Positions 32,969 to 51,194 are shown, numbered from the stretch's first letter. The stretch: DNA of 64,000 nt from an uncultured Actinomycetota bacterium (GCA_963754575.1 CAVWGQ010000006.1:121853-185852), one strand, 5' to 3'. Program-made: numbers and translations. The notes: generated by a model from the sequence alone, not told the origin.

Positions 32969-33015
32969 CCCTGTCGCCCCGTGGTCTGACGCCTCCCCGG
33001 GGGTCGTCGGGGCCT

Positions 33016-33076
33016 GCCGTTGGGGACCAATCGGCGGTGAAACCTGGGTCAAATCTGCCGTTGGTGACCAATCGGC
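33016..33076 (+). repeat. Paired 20-bp quasi-palindromic repeat, locus 1 (direct)
   Basis: GCCGTTGGGGACCAATCGGC (33016-33035) and GCCGTTGGTGACCAATCGGC (33057-33076), between convergent mshC and PAC2 genes. Confidence 0.95.
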
Positions 33077-34155: not shown

Positions 34156-37930
<3,775 letters not shown>

Positions 37931-37938
<8 letters not shown>

Positions 37939-38701
37939 CGTGTCGCGCGCTGGGGTTGACGCGTCGGAGGAGCGCCGATTGGTCCCCAACGGCAATGACA
38001 TGGCCCGGAGAACTGCCGTTGGTGACCAATCGGCAGCCCAGCGGGCCTGGCCGGCGGCGGTGCTCTGGGACATGGACGGCACGTTGGTGGACACCGAGCC
38101 GTACTGGATCGACACCGAGTTCGCACTGGCGGAGCGCTACGGCGCCAGCTGGTCGCAGGAGCACGCGCTCAACCTCGTCGGCCAGGACCTGCTCGAGTCG
38201 GGCCGCTACATCCGCGAGCACATGGGGATCGGCCTCGAGCCGGCGCAGATCGTCGAGGAGCTCCTCGACGGCGTGGTCGCGATGGTCGAGCGCGAGGTGC
38301 CGTGGCGACCGGGTGCCCGGGAGCTGCTGGCCGCGCTGGTCGACGAGGGCGTGCCGTGCGGGCTGGTCACGATGTCCTACGAGCGCTTCGTGGCACCGGT
38401 CCTCGCGGCCCTGCCCGAGGGTGCCTTCGAGGTGGTGGTGACCGGGGACGCGGTGAGCCACGGCAAGCCACACCCCGAGCCTTACCTCAAGGCGGCCCGC
38501 GAGCTGCGCCTGGAGCCGGCGGACTGCCTGGCGATCGAGGACTCCGACACCGGCACCCGCTCGGCGGTCGCGGCGGGGGCCACGGTCCTGGTAGTCCCGG
38601 CCCACGTCCCGGTGCTGGAGGGCGAACGGCGGGTCCTGCGGGACACGCTGGCCGGCCTCACGGTCGACGACCTGAGCGCCCTGCGAGCCGCAGGGTCGTG
38701 A
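37931..38701 (+). CDS. HAD family phosphatase (N-terminus apparently contains a repeat pair in frame)
   Basis: ATG overlaps the metH stop (ATGAGTGA); [15 protein letters not shown] and IEDS motifs. Confidence 0.85.
37974..38034. repeat. Paired 20-bp repeat, locus 2 (inverted)
   Basis: GCCGATTGGTCCCCAACGGC (37974-37993, reverse) and GCCGTTGGTGACCAATCGGC (38015-38034). Confidence 0.95.
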
Positions 38702-38716
38702 GGCGCGGGGTACGCC

Positions 38717-39604
38717 TCAGGCGAGGTCGTCGGCGGTGACGCTGCCGGGATCAGCCGGCTCGACCTCCGGCAACGGCGGGGGAGTGCCACCCCACGCGGG
38801 GCAGATGGCCTGGTGCGCGCACCAGTCGCACAGCCGGGAGCGGCGTGGCTGCCAGTCCCCGGTCTCGGTGGCGAGCTGGATCGCGCGCCAGATCGCCTCC
38901 ACCTTGCGCTCGGTGGCGAGCAGGTCCTGCTCGTCCGGGGCGTAGCGGACCAGCTCCCCGCTTCCGAGGTAGACCAGCTGCAGCATCGAGGGCACCACGC
39001 CACGGGTCCGCCAGAGGACGAGGGCGTAGAACTTCATCTGGAACAGCGCCTTCGCCTCCCAGCCGACCGCGGGAGCCTTGCCGCTCTTGTAGTCGACGAC
39101 CCGCATCGCCCCGTCGGGCGCCACGTCGAGCCGGTCGACGAAGCCGCGCAGCAAGAGCCGCGAGTCGAGCACCGCCTCGACGTACAGCTCCCGCTCCGCG
39201 GGCTCGAGCCGGCGCGGGTCCTCGAGCTGGAAGTAGCGGTCCAGGACCGTGCGGCACGAGGTCAACCAGCCGGCGACCTCCGGCCCCTCGCCGCCGAACA
39301 TCTCCGCGAGGGCGGGCTCGGCCTCGAGCAGGCCCTTCCACGAGGGCGCCAGCAGGTCGCGCGCCCGCTCGGGAGTGCGCTCGGCCGAGGGCAGGTCGAA
39401 GAGGTCCTCGAGCACCTTGTGCACCAGCGTTCCGCGCGCCGCGTCGGGGCTCGGGGGCTCCGGCAACCGGTCCACGATGCGGAAGCGGTAGAGCAGCGGG
39501 CAGGTGAGGAAGTCGCCGGCCCGACTCGGGGAGAGGGAGCCGAGCACCTCCACCCCGTCGACGGGCGTCGACAGCGGGAGAGCCGGCGAGTCGTCCACGG
39601 TCAT
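38717..39604 (-). CDS. RecB family exonuclease (PD-(D/E)xK)
   Basis: LSPSR..DF.TCPL.YRF, GFVDRLD and VVDYKSGK motifs. Confidence 0.9.
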   Translation of the reverse strand: MTVDDSPALPLSTPVDGVEVLGSLSPSRAGDFLTCPLLYRFRIVDRLPEPPSPDAARGTLVHKVLEDLFDLPSAERTPERARDLLAPSWKGLLEAEPALAEMFGGEGPEVAGWLTSCRTVLDRYFQLEDPRRLEPAERELYVEAVLDSRLLLRGFVDRLDVAPDGAMRVVDYKSGKAPAVGWEAKALFQMKFYALVLWRTRGVVPSMLQLVYLGSGELVRYAPDEQDLLATERKVEAIWRAIQLATETGDWQPRRSRLCDWCAHQAICPAWGGTPPPLPEVEPADPGSVTADDLA

Positions 39605-40853: not shown

Positions 40854-41808
40854 GGACGACACCCGGGACGCCCCCGACGTTCCTCTCGACGCGTGGTCCG
40901 GCGTCCACCGTGGACCTCTGCGCGAGGGCGAGTGGGTGCGCCTGGTCGACGCCAAGGGCCGGCGGCACAACATCTGCCTCGAGGCCGGCAAGCGGTTCTT
41001 CTCGAACCGCGGCCACCTCGAGCACGACGAGCTGATCGGGCGCGAGGAGGGCTTCAGCGTCACGTCGTCGGTCGGCGGGCAGTACCTCGTCTTCCGACCC
41101 TTGCTCTCCGAGTTCGTGGTCTCCATGCCGCGCGGCGCGGCCGTGGTCTACCCCAAGGACGCCGCGCAGATCGTGGCGATGGCCGACATCTTCCCGGGCG
41201 CCGACGTGGTCGAGGCCGGTGTGGGCTCCGGGGCGCTGACCTGCTCGCTGCTGCGTGCCGTCGGTCCCCACGGCCGGGTGACGTCGTACGAGCTGCGCGA
41301 GGAGTTCGCCGACGTCGCCCGGCGCAACGTCACCCAGTTCTTCGGCGGCGACCACCCGGCCTGGCAGCTGTCGCTCGGCGACCTGGCCGAGGAGCTGCCA
41401 CGATCCGGGGCGAAGGTGGACCGGATCATCCTCGACATGCTGGCCCCCTGGGACTGCGTCGACGCGGTGTCCGGCGCGCTGCGGCCGGGAGGGATCGTGT
41501 GCGGGTACGTCGCGACCACGACCCAGCTCTCGCGGTTCGTGGAGACCCTGCGCGCGCACGGCGGCTTCACCGAGCCGGCGGTCTGGGAGTCGCTGGTGCG
41601 GGACTGGCACGTCGAGGGCCTCGCCGTACGGCCGGGGCACAAGATGATCGGCCACACGGCGTTCCTCGTGACCTCGCGCCGGATGGCGCCGGGGGAGCGG
41701 GCGCCGTCGAAGAAGCGTCGACCTGCGCCGGGGGCCTACGGGCCCGACTACACCGGCCCGAGGCCCGCCGACCTGCCGGCGCTGCCCGAGGAGCCGGCCG
41801 GGTCCTGA
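40846..41808 (+). CDS. trmI: tRNA (adenine-58-N1)-methyltransferase
   Basis: MPRGAAVVYPKD, VEAGVGSG and LDMLAPW motifs; synteny with arc. Confidence 0.93.
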   Translation: MAEDDTRDAPDVPLDAWSGVHRGPLREGEWVRLVDAKGRRHNICLEAGKRFFSNRGHLEHDELIGREEGFSVTSSVGGQYLVFRPLLSEFVVSMPRGAAVVYPKDAAQIVAMADIFPGADVVEAGVGSGALTCSLLRAVGPHGRVTSYELREEFADVARRNVTQFFGGDHPAWQLSLGDLAEELPRSGAKVDRIILDMLAPWDCVDAVSGALRPGGIVCGYVATTTQLSRFVETLRAHGGFTEPAVWESLVRDWHVEGLAVRPGHKMIGHTAFLVTSRRMAPGERAPSKKRRPAPGAYGPDYTGPRPADLPALPEEPAGS

Positions 41809-41845
41809 GGGCGCCGCTCTCGCCGCTCGGGTGTCCGGTGAGGGT

Positions 41846-41906
41846 GCCGTTTGGTCACCAACGACACTTCGGTGGACCCCAGGGATGTCGATTGGTCACC
41901 AACGGC
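41846..41906 (-). repeat. Paired 20-bp repeat, locus 3 (both copies reverse)
   Basis: GCCGTTTGGTCACCAACGAC (41846-41865) and GTCGATTGGTCACCAACGGC (41887-41906), between trmI and arc. Confidence 0.92.
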
Positions 41907-42002
41907 GCACCCCGGGCCCCGGAAAATCCGATCCCGACAGGTGGTGTCTGGCCTCCGCCCGACCCACCACGCAGGTAGGGTCGAAATCGGGAGGTGACGC
42001 TG

Positions 42003-44914: not shown

Positions 44915-46424
44915 ATGAGCGTGCGGCGGGTCATGGGCACCGAGGTCGAGTACGGCATCTCCGTCCCGGGTCAGCCGTTGGCCAACCCGATGGTGGCGTC
45001 GTCGCAGGTGGTCAACGCCTACGCCTCGGCCACCGTCCGGGCGCGACGTGCCCGGTGGGACTTCGAGGAGGAGTCGCCGCTGCGTGACGCGCGCGGCTTC
45101 GACATGTCGCGCCAGGTGGCCGACCCCACCCAGCTGACCGACGAGGACCTCGGGCTGGCGAACGTCATCCTCACCAACGGCGCCCGGCTCTACGTCGACC
45201 ACGCCCACCCGGAGTACGCCACGCCCGAGGTGACCTCGCCGCTCGACATCGTGCGCTGGGACAAGGCAGGGGAGCAGGTGATGCTCGACGCCGCGCGACT
45301 GGCCGGCCAGCTGCCGGGCGGCACGCCGATCAACCTCTACAAGAACAACACCGACAACAAGGGGGCGTCGTACGGCGCCCACGAGAACTACCTGATGCGT
45401 CGACGTACTCCCTTCGGCGACATCGTGCGACACCTCACGCCGTTCTTCGTCTCCCGGCAGGTGGTGTGCGGCGCCGGTCGGGTCGGCATGGGCCAGGACG
45501 GGCGCAGCCACGGCTACCAGGTGAGCCAGCGCGCCGACTTCTTCGAGGTCGAGGTGGGACTGGAGACGACGCTCAAGCGTCCGATCATCAACACCCGCGA
45601 CGAGCCGCACGCCGATCCCGAGAAGTACCGCAGGCTGCACGTGATCATCGGCGACGCCAACCTCGCCGAGGTCTCGACGTACCTCAAGGTCGGGACCACG
45701 GCCCTGGTGCTCGCCATGATCGAGGACCGCTACATCGACCGCGACCTGACCGTCGAGGGGTCGGTCGCCGCGCTGCGGGCGGTCTCGCACGACCCGACGC
45801 TCAAGCAGCTGATCCGGTTGACCGACGGCCGCACGCTCACGGCCGTGCAGCTCCAGCTGGAGTACCTCGACCTCGCGAAGAAGTACGTCGAGGACCGACT
45901 CGGCAGCGACGCCGACCCGCAGACCGTGGACGTCCTCGCCCGCTGGGAGTCGGTCCTCGACCGGCTCGAACGCGACCCGATGCTGTGCGCGCGCGAGCTC
46001 GACTGGGTGGCCAAGCTCGAGCTGCTCGAGCACTACCGTCAGCGCGACGGGCTCGGCTGGGACGACGCCAAGATGCAGCTGATCGACTACCAGTACTCCG
46101 ACATCCGGCCCGAGAAGGGGCTCTACCACCGCCTCGCTCCGCCTCGGCCGGATCGAGCGGCTGCTCGACGACGTCTCCGTCGAGGCGGCCATGCACGACC
46201 CGCCCGTCGACACCCGGGCCTACTTCCGCGGTCGCTGTCTCGAGAAGTACGCCGAGCACGTCGCGGCCGCCTCGTGGGACTCGGTGATCTTCGACCTCCC
46301 CGGGCGCGACTCGCTGCAGCGGATCCCGACCATCGACCCGCTGCGCGGCACCCGCGCCAGCGTCGGCGACCTGCTCGACCGGTGTGACACCGCCGAGGCG
46401 CTCTTCGCCGCGCTCACCCGCTGA
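44915..46424 (+). CDS. dop: Depupylase/deamidase Dop, frameshift near 46135
   Basis: [23 protein letters not shown] and RDEPHAD motifs; C-terminus TRAYFRG..AASWDS in a shifted frame. Confidence 0.95.
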
Positions 46425-46454: not shown

Positions 46455-46515
46455 GCCGATTGGTCCCCAACGGCAGCGACACGCCGGGTCGACCTGCCGT
46501 TGGTGACCAATCGGC
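46455..46515. repeat. Paired 20-bp repeat, locus 4 (inverted)
   Basis: GCCGATTGGTCCCCAACGGC (46455-46474, reverse) and GCCGTTGGTGACCAATCGGC (46496-46515), between dop and pup. Confidence 0.95.
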
Positions 46516-48505: not shown

Positions 48506-48551
48506 CGTAGCTCAGGGCAGGCCGCGGTCTACTCCGGCAACCCGCTGGGTT

Positions 48552-48612
48552 GCCGTTGGGGACCAATCGGCGTTCAGGCGGGCGATGGCGTTGTCGTTGG
48601 TGACCAATCGGC
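48552..48612 (+). repeat. Paired 20-bp repeat, locus 5 (direct), upstream flank of the nuclease-like gene
   Basis: GCCGTTGGGGACCAATCGGC (48552-48571) and GTCGTTGGTGACCAATCGGC (48593-48612). Confidence 0.95.
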
Positions 48613-48678: not shown

Positions 48679-49663
48679 ATGCATCTCGACGACGGGCCAC
48701 CGATCCGCGGCCACATCAGGCTGGCGGGCTACCGGCGCGTGTCGCACGGGCTCTTCCTGCCGTCGAAGGAGGGGAGCGACGAACTCACCGAGCGCGAGTG
48801 GCGTCGGGACCTGGGCGCCTGGCTGCTCGTCCTTCCCCGCGGGGCGAGGTTCACCCACGTCACGGGTGCGCAACTGAAGAAGTGGAAGCTGCCCGCGCTG
48901 CCCGACCACCTTCCGGCGTTCGCCGTGGTGGGGCGCAACGATCCCCGCCCTCGGCGCAACGGGTTGGTCTGCTCGCGACTCGAGGTGGCAGCGCCTGGGA
49001 CCTTCGTCGACGGACTGCCCGTCGACGCCTCCGAGGAGATCCTGCTGCGCGCTGCCCGGGACCTGGGGCTGCTCGACCTACTCGTCCTGGTGGACTCGGC
49101 CCGCAGGATGGGTGACGTGGACTGCTGAGCGCATGCAGGCGGTCCTCGACAGTCGTCGCCCCGGCGTACGCCTGCTGCGTCGTGCGTGGCTGCTGTCGAG
49201 CGATCGTGCGGACTCGCCGGGCGAGACCTTGTTGCGTCTCTTCGACGTCACCATGGACGTCGAGGTGAAGCCCCAGGCGACGCTCTACGACGAGGCCGGC
49301 AACCTGGTCGGCGAGGCCGACCTGTGGGTTGTCGGGACCGATCTGATCCACGAGTACGACGGGGCGCACCACCGCGAGAAGGGACAGCAGCGGACGGATC
49401 TCCGGCGGGGTCGGGGCCTCGCCCAGACGTCGTACGACAGGCGCGGGTTCACCCTCGACGACCTGCTGAACCATGCCGCCGTGCTCATGCACGAGCTCGA
49501 CCGGGATCTTGGGCGTCGCCACGACCTACGGCGACTTCGTCGATGGCGGGTGCTGGTGGAGCAGTCGATGTACTCCGACGCGGGCCTGCGGCGGATCCGC
49601 AACCGGTGGCAGCGCCAGATGGGGGTCGCCGAGTGGTCGCGAACGGCACCCCGTGAGGCGTGA
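48679..49663 (+). CDS. AbiEi-like/DUF559 (Vsr-like PD-(D/E)xK) putative endonuclease; frameshift near 49120
   Basis: N-terminal part RVSHGLF..F.HVT.A.L..W.LP; C-terminal part DSPGETLLRL..PQ..ADL..HEYDG.HH..D.RR..L, typical of Vsr/DUF559-like folds (recognised from memory). Confidence 0.7.
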
Positions 49664-49688
49664 TTGTCGCCGTTGGGGACCAATCGGC
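49628..49688. repeat. Paired 20-bp repeat, locus 6 (inverted), overlapping the 3' end of the nuclease-like gene
   Basis: GCCGAGTGGTCGCGAACGGC (49628-49647; 17/20 match to the reverse consensus, inside the CDS) and GCCGTTGGGGACCAATCGGC (49669-49688). Confidence 0.9.
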
Positions 49689-51108: not shown

Positions 51109-51133
51109 GCCGTCCTCCGGCGTCCCGGACGTT

Positions 51134-51194
51134 GCCGTTGGGGACCAATCGGCGAGGAAATCACTGGTCCGACTGTCGTTGGTGACCAATCGGC
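51134..51194 (+). repeat. Paired 20-bp repeat, locus 7 (direct)
   Basis: GCCGTTGGGGACCAATCGGC (51134-51153) and GTCGTTGGTGACCAATCGGC (51175-51194), between pafA and fkbp. Confidence 0.95.

Follow-up and report, generated by a model that had tools for sequence, protein, structure and literature searches.

In a 64,000-nucleotide stretch of DNA from an uncultured Actinomycetota bacterium (GCA_963754575.1 CAVWGQ010000006.1:121853-185852), called the window hereafter and with positions counted from its first letter, the metH gene for B12-dependent methionine synthase overlaps the gene for a HAD-family phosphatase, and an inverted pair of short repeat boxes lies just past this overlap (37974-38034). 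The initial annotation of the window had proposed that the pair is translated in frame inside the N-terminus of the phosphatase, after the manner of the Rickettsia palindromic elements (RPEs). From comparison with other species of the genus we argue here that the HAD protein starts at ATG 37931 and that the whole pair is translated from there, a reading to which we give a probability of about 0.58, and that translation of at least the second box is highly probable. The genus is given as Nocardioides from the names of the closest database HAD proteins, and the genome that holds the window (3.73 Mb, 92% complete) is coded G000.

The metH-HAD junction and its repeat pair

As proposed, the HAD frame opens with the ATG at 37931, which is part of ATGAGTGA (37931-37938) and overlaps the metH stop codon TGA at 37936-37938, and it continues through both boxes, with the translation given in the annotation, into the HAD core and up to a stop at 38699-38701. 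Besides ATG 37931 four further in-frame codons could serve as starts, namely GTG 37940, TTG 37979, ATG 38000 and GTG 38060. ATG 38000 was indeed found inside the spacer between the boxes, GTG 38060 is the valine codon of the VLWD motif, and TTG 37979, absent from the earlier list, lies within box 1, 6 nt past the letters GGAGGAG. The inverted arrangement was borne out as well; the two arms are 21 nt each, 95% complementary and 19 nt apart (Table 1), and the pair gives an RNA hairpin of 21 bp with a 19-nt loop.

The open frame alone is no evidence of translation, because stretches of 43 codons are free of stops in 65% of cases when all six frames of the window are counted, and it was therefore dropped as an argument. 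The box itself holds a stop codon in only one of its six frames, that of the reversed A-type box (CRW*PI, with TGG TGA). A consensus scan of 37700-38900 for promoters and terminators found none, including no sigma-70-like promoter near the pair, and an Rfam scan of the whole window at the gathering threshold returned tRNA only, with no match at the pair, which ruled out a known riboswitch or leader there. What exceeds chance, judging by the comparison described below, is the conservation of the frame across species and not its openness.

Frame conservation across the genus and the predicted HAD fold

A pattern scan of 301 genomes of the same genus found the metH stop followed by WDMDG within 260 nt in 153. 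The coupled ATG was examined in the 40 listed junctions where metH ends in GAT-GA(C/G)-TGA and thus creates an overlapping ATG. In 36 of these junctions, spread over 23 distinct lengths from 51 to 198 nt, this ATG shared the HAD frame; the binomial p was 1.3e-13, or 4e-8 when each distinct length was counted once, values which overstate the independence of phylogenetically related species and to that extent count against our reading. Each of the four junctions with the coupled ATG out of frame has another start further downstream. Since the ATG is in frame so often and at so many lengths, it is the normal start of the HAD gene in the genus, and the G000 junction, which is 159 nt long and in frame, fits this pattern.

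A doublet of the same family was present in about 17 of the 153 junctions, and these were fetched and parsed along with pairless controls. Of the pair-bearing junctions, 14 have no in-frame stop past the pair, and in every one of them the TTG of box 1 keeps the HAD frame, with six values for its distance to the W codon (-75, -84, -87, -90, -108 and -126 nt). Similarly, in the seven pair-bearing junctions with a coupled ATG, the distance from ATG to box took seven values from 24 to 66 nt, all of them multiples of 3. Such frame-keeping indels on both sides of the pair would be predicted for a translated leader and not for an untranslated spacer. The pair is out of frame in G253, G172, G264 and G009, all of which have an in-frame stop and/or an own start after the pair, and it is intergenic there. 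On the other hand, the stretch from the pair to AVLW offers no in-frame ATG, GTG, TTG or CTG in G041, G167 and G061, so that at least box 2 must be translated in these three; in G298 and G098 a start after the pair is possible. When the HAD orthologs were aligned, as the initial annotation had suggested, the pairless ones were found to have much shorter, non-homologous N-termini of 4-25 residues before WPAAV/AVLWD, and none had the equally long homologous N-terminus that would have spoken against the proposal.

The HAD core was identified by a Pfam HAD_2 match (E=5.7e-29) at residues 44-222, the HAD_2 and Hydrolase models beginning at 43/44, and the nucleophile motif DMDGT occupies residues 47-51 after the hydrophobic strand 1. 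In an AlphaFold2 model made from a 24-sequence alignment (mean predicted local distance difference test score, pLDDT, 85) strand 1 covers residues 43-46 and the Rossmann-like core scores above 90, while residues 1-36, which are predicted to be disordered, score below 50. A start at GTG 38060 would yield M-L-W-D and is unlikely, as it would truncate this first beta-strand; the shortest unambiguous orthologs begin M-K-A-A-L-W or M-L-A-V-L-W, five residues before the W. The codon at the V44 position is GTC or GTT in many species, and orthologs whose start lies a little upstream of WPAA keep these residues at the amino-acid level. Owing to the comparative frame evidence, the damage to strand 1 by a start at GTG 38060 and the predicted disordered tail, combined together, the pair is very probably translated, either fully or at least in its second box.

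Three further observations were made on these junctions. The G008 contigs C9 and C11 (L040, L041) each have a metH-HAD junction with an in-frame doublet, with leaders of 142 and 166 nt, and probably represent two strains or species in one bin (8% contamination). In a clade of HAD orthologs (L011, L037, L045, L046; junctions of G079, G087, G144, G081, G050 and G057) several species have no in-frame ATG, GTG or TTG after the metH stop, the sole start candidate being a CTG 3-6 nt past the TGA (TGACCCCTGA / TGAGCGCTGA), which suggests CTG initiation or another mode of coupling in that clade. Finally, a conserved stretch in the HAD frame upstream of the core, (E)(D/G)IL(N/S)T(E/A)...(P)AGQ with the DNA GAGGACATCCTGAACACCGA...GCAGGTCAG, was noticed in L003, L004, L007, L009, L010, L023 and L058, where metH is not directly adjacent to the HAD gene or a long spacer lies between them; this stretch may mark a further conserved leader or else an RNA element.

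The repeat family and the history of the junction

The 20-nt box, CCGATTGGTC[C/A]CCAACGGCA, occurs in two subtypes, C-type and A-type, and each single box is a bulged palindrome, GCCG-A-TTGG-TCN-CCAA-CGGC, of 8 bp. We counted 14 copies in the window, arranged as 7 pairs, against 0.00 expected from shuffles, and 51 copies over the whole genome (3.73 Mb), where the reversed control gave 0. A looser census of the genome gave about 29 doublets at 22 loci, 7 of them inside the 64-kb window. About 17 of these doublets are direct and about 12 inverted, and the offset between the boxes is rigid, being 41 nt in direct and 39 nt in inverted pairs. Arrays of doublets were also seen, three direct ones with a 124-nt period at C23:57674-57982 and double doublets at C7:282780-282994, C10:51081-51282, C11:9477-9668, C28:13102-13264 and C7:446749-446940. 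The spacers of the seven window copies have no similarity to one another, and a miniature inverted-repeat transposable element with a conserved interior was thereby ruled out.

The window is a Pup-proteasome neighbourhood, with mshC, PAC2, metH, HAD, a RecB-like nuclease, a site-2 protease, trmI, arc, dop, a nuclease-like gene, pafA, an FKBP isomerase and pafB, an order drawn from translated open reading frames (ORFs) and from Pfam assignments on an orthologous contig (L071), whose metH ortholog has the S-methyl_trans, Pterin_bind, B12-binding and Met_synt_B12 domains. Most likely, the repeats form a small family of the REP (repetitive extragenic palindromic) kind that is restricted to a subset of the genus and concentrated around this gene region. 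Apparent frameshifts were noticed in the 3' part of dop (~46100-46424), in the nuclease-like gene (~49100-49130) and at the N-terminus of pabB on contig C28 (~63620), the last of them at a G-run relative to the 98%-identical protein P0122. Each of these genes continues in another frame with good third-position GC (GC3), and the shifts are probably homopolymer indel errors of the assembly, or else mark pseudogenes.

Table 1. Coordinates of the junction, of the repeat pairs in the window and of the leaders that hold a second, unrelated repeat
Feature	Position	Strand	Remarks
metH, B12-dependent methionine synthase	34156..37938	+	ORF; stop TGA 37936-37938; C-terminus conserved across the genus
HAD-family phosphatase ORF	37931..38701	+	256 aa from the coupled start; ATG in ATGAGTGA (37931-37938) overlaps the metH stop
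Shine-Dalgarno-like GGAGGAG	37966..37972	+	6 nt upstream of TTG 37979
Box 1, C-type, GCCGATTGGTCCCCAACGGCA	37974..37994	+	read as R15-R16-L17-V18-P19-N20-G21; holds TTG 37979-37981
Spacer, 19 nt	37995..38013	+	variable between copies and species; in-frame ATG 38000
Box 2, A-type, inverted copy	38014..38034	-	+ strand reads A29-V30-G31-D32-Q33-S34-A35
Start of the conserved HAD core, residues 40-51	38048..38083	+	invariant alignment columns; beta-strand A43-W46; GTG 38060 = V44
Sister pair, direct, 41-nt offset	33015..33075	-	between the 3' ends of mshC and PAC2; also occupied in L071
Sister pair, direct	41847..41907	+	between trmI and arc/mpa; site empty in L071
Sister pair, inverted	46456..46514		downstream of dop
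Sister pair, direct	48551..48611	-	5' side of the nuclease-like gene
Sister pair, inverted, degenerate	49629..49687		between the nuclease-like gene and pafA
Sister pair, direct	51133..51193	-	between pafA and the FKBP-type isomerase gene
HAD-leader junctions with the LVEEG..APVTRP repeat	L051, L060, L061, L059, L052		G086, G119, G304, G182, G266

Only two of the roughly 22 loci of G000 hold an in-frame doublet. The second one (C28:63880-63938) lies in the linker of a PabB/TrpE-like chorismate-binding gene, whose ORF is open and has high GC3 on either side of it, with FEHPAPGPD before the repeat-encoded segment and IPDSYVKAF after it. It is read as APIGPQR...CRWGPIG in frame 'a', a frame other than the frame 'b' of the HAD leader, and both of its boxes are C-type (TGG GGA); an inverted A-type box would give the stop TGG TGA in that frame. 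PabB orthologs of 73-98% identity retain the pair, inverted or direct (P0122-P0126, P0130, P0137, P0157), P0127, P0129, P0145 and P0166 lack it, and others have unrelated linkers. Furthermore, an unrelated and abundant palindromic repeat, GGTCGAGGAGGG...CCCGTCACGAGACC, was found in the HAD leader of other species, in frame from the coupled ATG and read LVEEG..APVTRP. It has 240-550 pattern matches per genome against a background of 30-80, and it occurs also in the PabB linkers of P0147 and P0180.

In a tree built on the metH C-terminus and HAD, the pair-bearing junctions fell into at least 7 clades, each with well-supported pairless sisters. The nearest relative found was the metagenome contig L071, encoding P0003 with a HAD identity of 87%, which is sister to G000 (support 96/95) inside the G000/G143/G024 clade. 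This contig has the family at mshC-PAC2, and the pair is missing from it at metH-HAD and trmI-arc. Its HAD leader equals that of G000 minus about 31 residues, an in-frame indel of about 93 nt (VTDPLAAPGAWPAAV vs MSDVS...). The simplest account of these sequences would be an ancestral pair in the G000/G143/G024 clade and a single loss of it, through an in-frame deletion, in the L071 lineage. At the trmI-arc site the two sister genomes give a clean presence and absence of a doublet (window 41808-41979 vs L071 14702-14782); L071 has TGA+tttcgcggt+cccgacaggtgg, and the window has about 125 extra nt there, the doublet included.

Genomes whose junction pair has the 3-nt loop contain 9-27 doublets each, with the copies clustered in the same neighbourhood in each genome, and 31 sampled pairless genomes have none, save relics of 1-3; a 2-nt-loop variant (TTTGGTCCCAAA) in G167, G225, G186, G253 and G264 falls outside the pattern of this census. 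A rule that the junction is occupied wherever the family is present held in 48 sampled genomes and was contradicted by L071, which has the family and an empty junction, so that it stands as a tendency only.

These results bear on two further claims of the initial annotation. Its view of an element inserted into a coding region with the frame preserved holds for the in-frame position in the leader, which the comparison supports well, and is not supported for a recent insertion at this junction. It had also taken translation as favouring mobility over an operator role, and here we disagree, as a translated pair neither excludes a role at the DNA or RNA level nor demonstrates transposition. Gain and loss over the longer term are supported by the patchy distribution of the family, the empty trmI-arc site of L071 and the unrelated repeat in the same leader. 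However, mobility as it had been argued is not supported, because the pair occupies the same junction across the sampled genomes that bear the family, is most simply ancestral in the G000/G143/G024 clade and has boxes that are constrained or homogenised. Individual sites would seem to turn over slowly, and the junction sequences show no sign of recent transposition at metH-HAD.

Relation to known palindromic repeats

Palindromic repeats in frame within genes are established, according to the survey by Di Nocera et al. (PMC3733652), for the RPEs of Rickettsia and for the GTAG and CGTC REPs of several phyla. The likeness to RPEs and intragenic REPs put forward in the initial annotation is apt as a description of the way of working. 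Like the RPEs as they are described there (RPE-1, and the short RPE-4 and RPE-6, which are CGTC-tagged REPs; Ogata et al. via PMC3733652), our repeats are dispersed palindromes in frame in genes of functional proteins, and their dimers add 20-30 residues, often at N-termini or in linkers, with the host fold unaffected, residues 1-36 being predicted to be disordered in the present case. They are dispersed and hairpin-forming by the box counts and the 21-bp fold given above, and, judged by sequence, they have in-frame copies in conserved proteins, namely in the HAD leader with its conserved frame and in the pabB linker. They differ from RPEs in that the host belongs to the Actinomycetota and not to the Alphaproteobacteria, in that their sequence appears unrelated, and in that the family is tiny (~50 boxes), with a rigid 39/41-nt offset, frequent direct pairs, positions conserved between species and in-frame copies at only the two loci. 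The boxes of G000 begin CGCC-GATTGG and not CGTC, and variants in G143 and G008 begin CGTC-G(A/T)TTGG.

Similar features are shared with REPs, with bacterial interspersed mosaic elements (BIMEs) and with the REPINs, REP doublets that go with a RAYT (REP-associated tyrosine transposase) gene (Bertels & Rainey; Nunvar et al.; Di Nocera et al. 2013). These too are imperfect palindromes of 20-40 nt, mostly intergenic doublets near the 3' ends of ORFs, with two box subtypes (C and A here, Y and Z REPs in BIMEs) and species-specific variants that co-vary over all copies; some copies lie inside ORFs, and an associated gene co-occurs, which in our case would be the nuclease-like gene. On the other hand, a search of the 92% complete G000 for Y1_Tnp/RAYT (PF01797), made with positive controls, gave no match, and a RAYT-driven REPIN was rejected for the absence of PF01797; the associated nuclease-like gene is without a Pfam match. 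REPINs have the inverted doublet as their unit and head-to-tail dimers are rare in REP families (PMC3733652), unlike the present family, whose direct pairs are no rarer than the inverted, and unlike REP systems its copies are few and regionally clustered. No GTAG tag was found in the boxes or flanks of the seven window copies. Actinobacteria are absent from the survey and CGTC REPs are unreported there (PMC3733652), and a literature search for a Nocardioides or actinobacterial REP/REPIN family returned nothing relevant and no description of this one. The family thus resembles RPEs and intragenic REPs in how it works, is probably not a sequence member of either, and is a new family. Persistence within a gene as a translated tail is a known way for such repeats, one not described for this bacterial group.

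Among actinobacteria, the mycobacterial interspersed repetitive units (MIRUs) are reportedly short repeats located between the genes of operons. The short ORFs within MIRUs share overlapping start and stop codons with the genes on either side, and translation through the repeat keeps the coupling, in which MIRUs are like this pair. They are unlike it in being tandem direct repeats of 40-100 bp that have no palindromic box, form separate mini-ORFs and not an N-terminal extension, and are unrelated in sequence. By analogy, MIRUs may be the nearest actinobacterial counterpart of repeats translated between coupled genes.

Alternative readings and what the boxes may do

Several points weigh against translation from ATG 37931 through the whole pair. 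GC at the three codon positions of the leaders is weakly coding-like (0.79/0.63/0.79 upstream of the pair and 0.70/0.58/0.67 in the spacer, genes having ~0.72/0.45/0.96), and we dropped it as positive evidence for the non-box parts; the G000 leader has the rare codons AGT, CGA, TTG, AAT, AGA and CAA; and GTG 38060 is present in G000 as a possible start. Some orthologs of the genus seem to use CTG starts, which weakens the argument from missing alternative starts, the apparent homopolymer frameshifts elsewhere in the assembly put some risk on statements about G000 that hang on a single base, and according to a caution by Di Nocera et al. (PMC3733652) REPs placed in N-termini by annotation are in many cases extragenic. 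Translation may instead begin within the pair region, at TTG 37979 or ATG 38000, leaving 37931-37978 untranslated and part of box 1 with box 2, or box 2 alone, in the protein. The strong Shine-Dalgarno-like motif ahead of TTG 37979 speaks for this, as do the public gene call P0002 (240 aa), which begins there, and P0007-P0010, called from the box 1 TTG as well. G024 moreover lacks a coupled ATG, its in-frame stop being the metH stop, and its only canonical starts are the box 1 TTG after AAGGAG and a GTG at -6; G305 and G061 also have no coupled ATG. We consider this alternative quite unlikely, because a coupled ATG in frame in 36 of 40 junctions, and in all seven pair-bearing junctions that have it, would be unexpected for an untranslated stretch, and because the motif, although a similar GGAG precedes the box 1 TTG in G024 and G008, is missing in G143, the closest sampled pair-bearing genome, and in the majority of the remaining species with a pair. 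One start does not exclude the other, however, and both could be used. Very unlikely, in our judgement, is a pair that is not translated at all, with the HAD protein made from GTG 38060 or a nearby non-canonical codon and a 122-nt intercistronic spacer that holds an extragenic REP-like element or operator and is open merely through its high G+C. The commonness of stop-free windows, the weak codon-position GC, the GTG at V44, the clearly intergenic pairs of four other species and the warning just cited would all agree with it. Yet it does not account for a frame conserved at many different lengths or for the species without any start after the pair, the valine codon is so often GTC or GTT that no start is conserved there, a protein beginning M-L-W-D would cut into strand 1 and be shorter than any unambiguous ortholog at its N-terminus, GTG 38060 has no Shine-Dalgarno motif before it, and the WPAA residues are conserved in orthologs that start just upstream.

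A different kind of alternative, compatible with translation, sees in the pair chiefly a conserved cis-acting site that is not currently mobile, translation being incidental; it would be either a two-box protein site, for instance for the product of the nuclease-like gene (48.6-49.7 kb) or for a Pup-proteasome regulator, or an mRNA hairpin that sets metH/HAD expression. We hold this possible, at somewhat less than even odds. Between G000 and G143 the boxes are identical at 36 of 40 positions and the spacer at 8 of 19, and more distant species show compensatory changes in the outer stem (GCCG/CGGC, GCGG/CCGC, GTCG/CGAC, GGG/CCC). The site is kept while its flanks diverge, the same junction being occupied in at least 17 genomes, the box offset is fixed, the pair can form the long RNA hairpin, no RAYT gene is present, and doublets are many and clustered in one neighbourhood in the sampled genomes with a junction pair and essentially missing in the 31 pairless ones. 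The nuclease-like gene was found in 17/17 pair-bearing genomes. It is found, however, also in G309, G276 and G116, where the doublet pattern used finds no pairs, and a Pfam scan of both halves of its protein gave no match. A long hairpin cannot be the functional form of the family in general, because direct doublets are common alongside inverted ones; the copies at convergent 3' ends (33015-33075), in the HAD leader and in the pabB linker are not in promoter or 5' regions and are atypical for operators; and the sites that are empty in L071, which has the family, indicate that individual sites are dispensable. In pabB another frame of the same box is used, and most of the other sites are non-coding; the comparison points to constraint or homogenisation of the boxes as nucleic acid and not as peptide. 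More tentatively, and we think it unlikely as it stands, the boxes may be a selected signal, a paired site for a co-inherited nuclease-like or DNA-binding protein (non-HUH) of the Pup-proteasome locus, long kept at fixed positions and acting as a second constraint on the translated HAD leader and pabB linker.

Returning to translation from ATG 37931, the analysis shows the repeat family, its conserved frame and position and the predicted disordered tail, and we infer both this translation in the present organism and a role of the boxes as a pair of protein-binding sites and/or an mRNA hairpin. The HAD start would be translationally coupled to metH through the overlap, with the doublet downstream of it; the doublet would be co-transcribed with metH-HAD and translated in frame 'b' as RRLVPNG...AVGDQSA, in the middle of a disordered, non-conserved and dispensable N-terminal tail of about 39 residues before the HAD core. 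It would persist there because nearly any sequence is tolerated in the leader. Repeats of the REP type prefer to lie directly past the stop of an ORF (PMC3733652), and the HAD start overlaps the metH stop, which suggests that a repeat arriving there is already coding; any repeat just after that stop would fall inside the HAD ORF, and the survivors would be frame-preserving, stop-free versions, unless the gene gains a new downstream start as in the four other species. The boxes themselves would then owe their preservation to the nucleic acid, constrained or homogenised as such, and not to the peptide.

For annotation this means that, in these genomes, the start of the HAD gene that follows metH should be set at the ATG overlapping the metH stop, and that the 'RRLVPNG...AVGDQS' segments of database proteins are real leader sequence and no sign of a new domain. 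At translationally coupled junctions small intergenic repeats are driven to become coding; in different species two unrelated families lie in frame in the same leader. In-frame palindromes of the RPE/intragenic-REP type are extended here to an actinobacterial genus. The orthologs with and without the pair offer a tractable case for asking whether such repeats act through mRNA, through DNA or not at all. The more interesting question is what keeps the boxes conserved. If they are indeed a selected paired site, the family would stand for a new type of domesticated, REP-like system among the Actinobacteria and would not be a selfish mobile repeat, and if they bind the linked nuclease-like protein, this would be a new partnership of repeat and enzyme without a RAYT.

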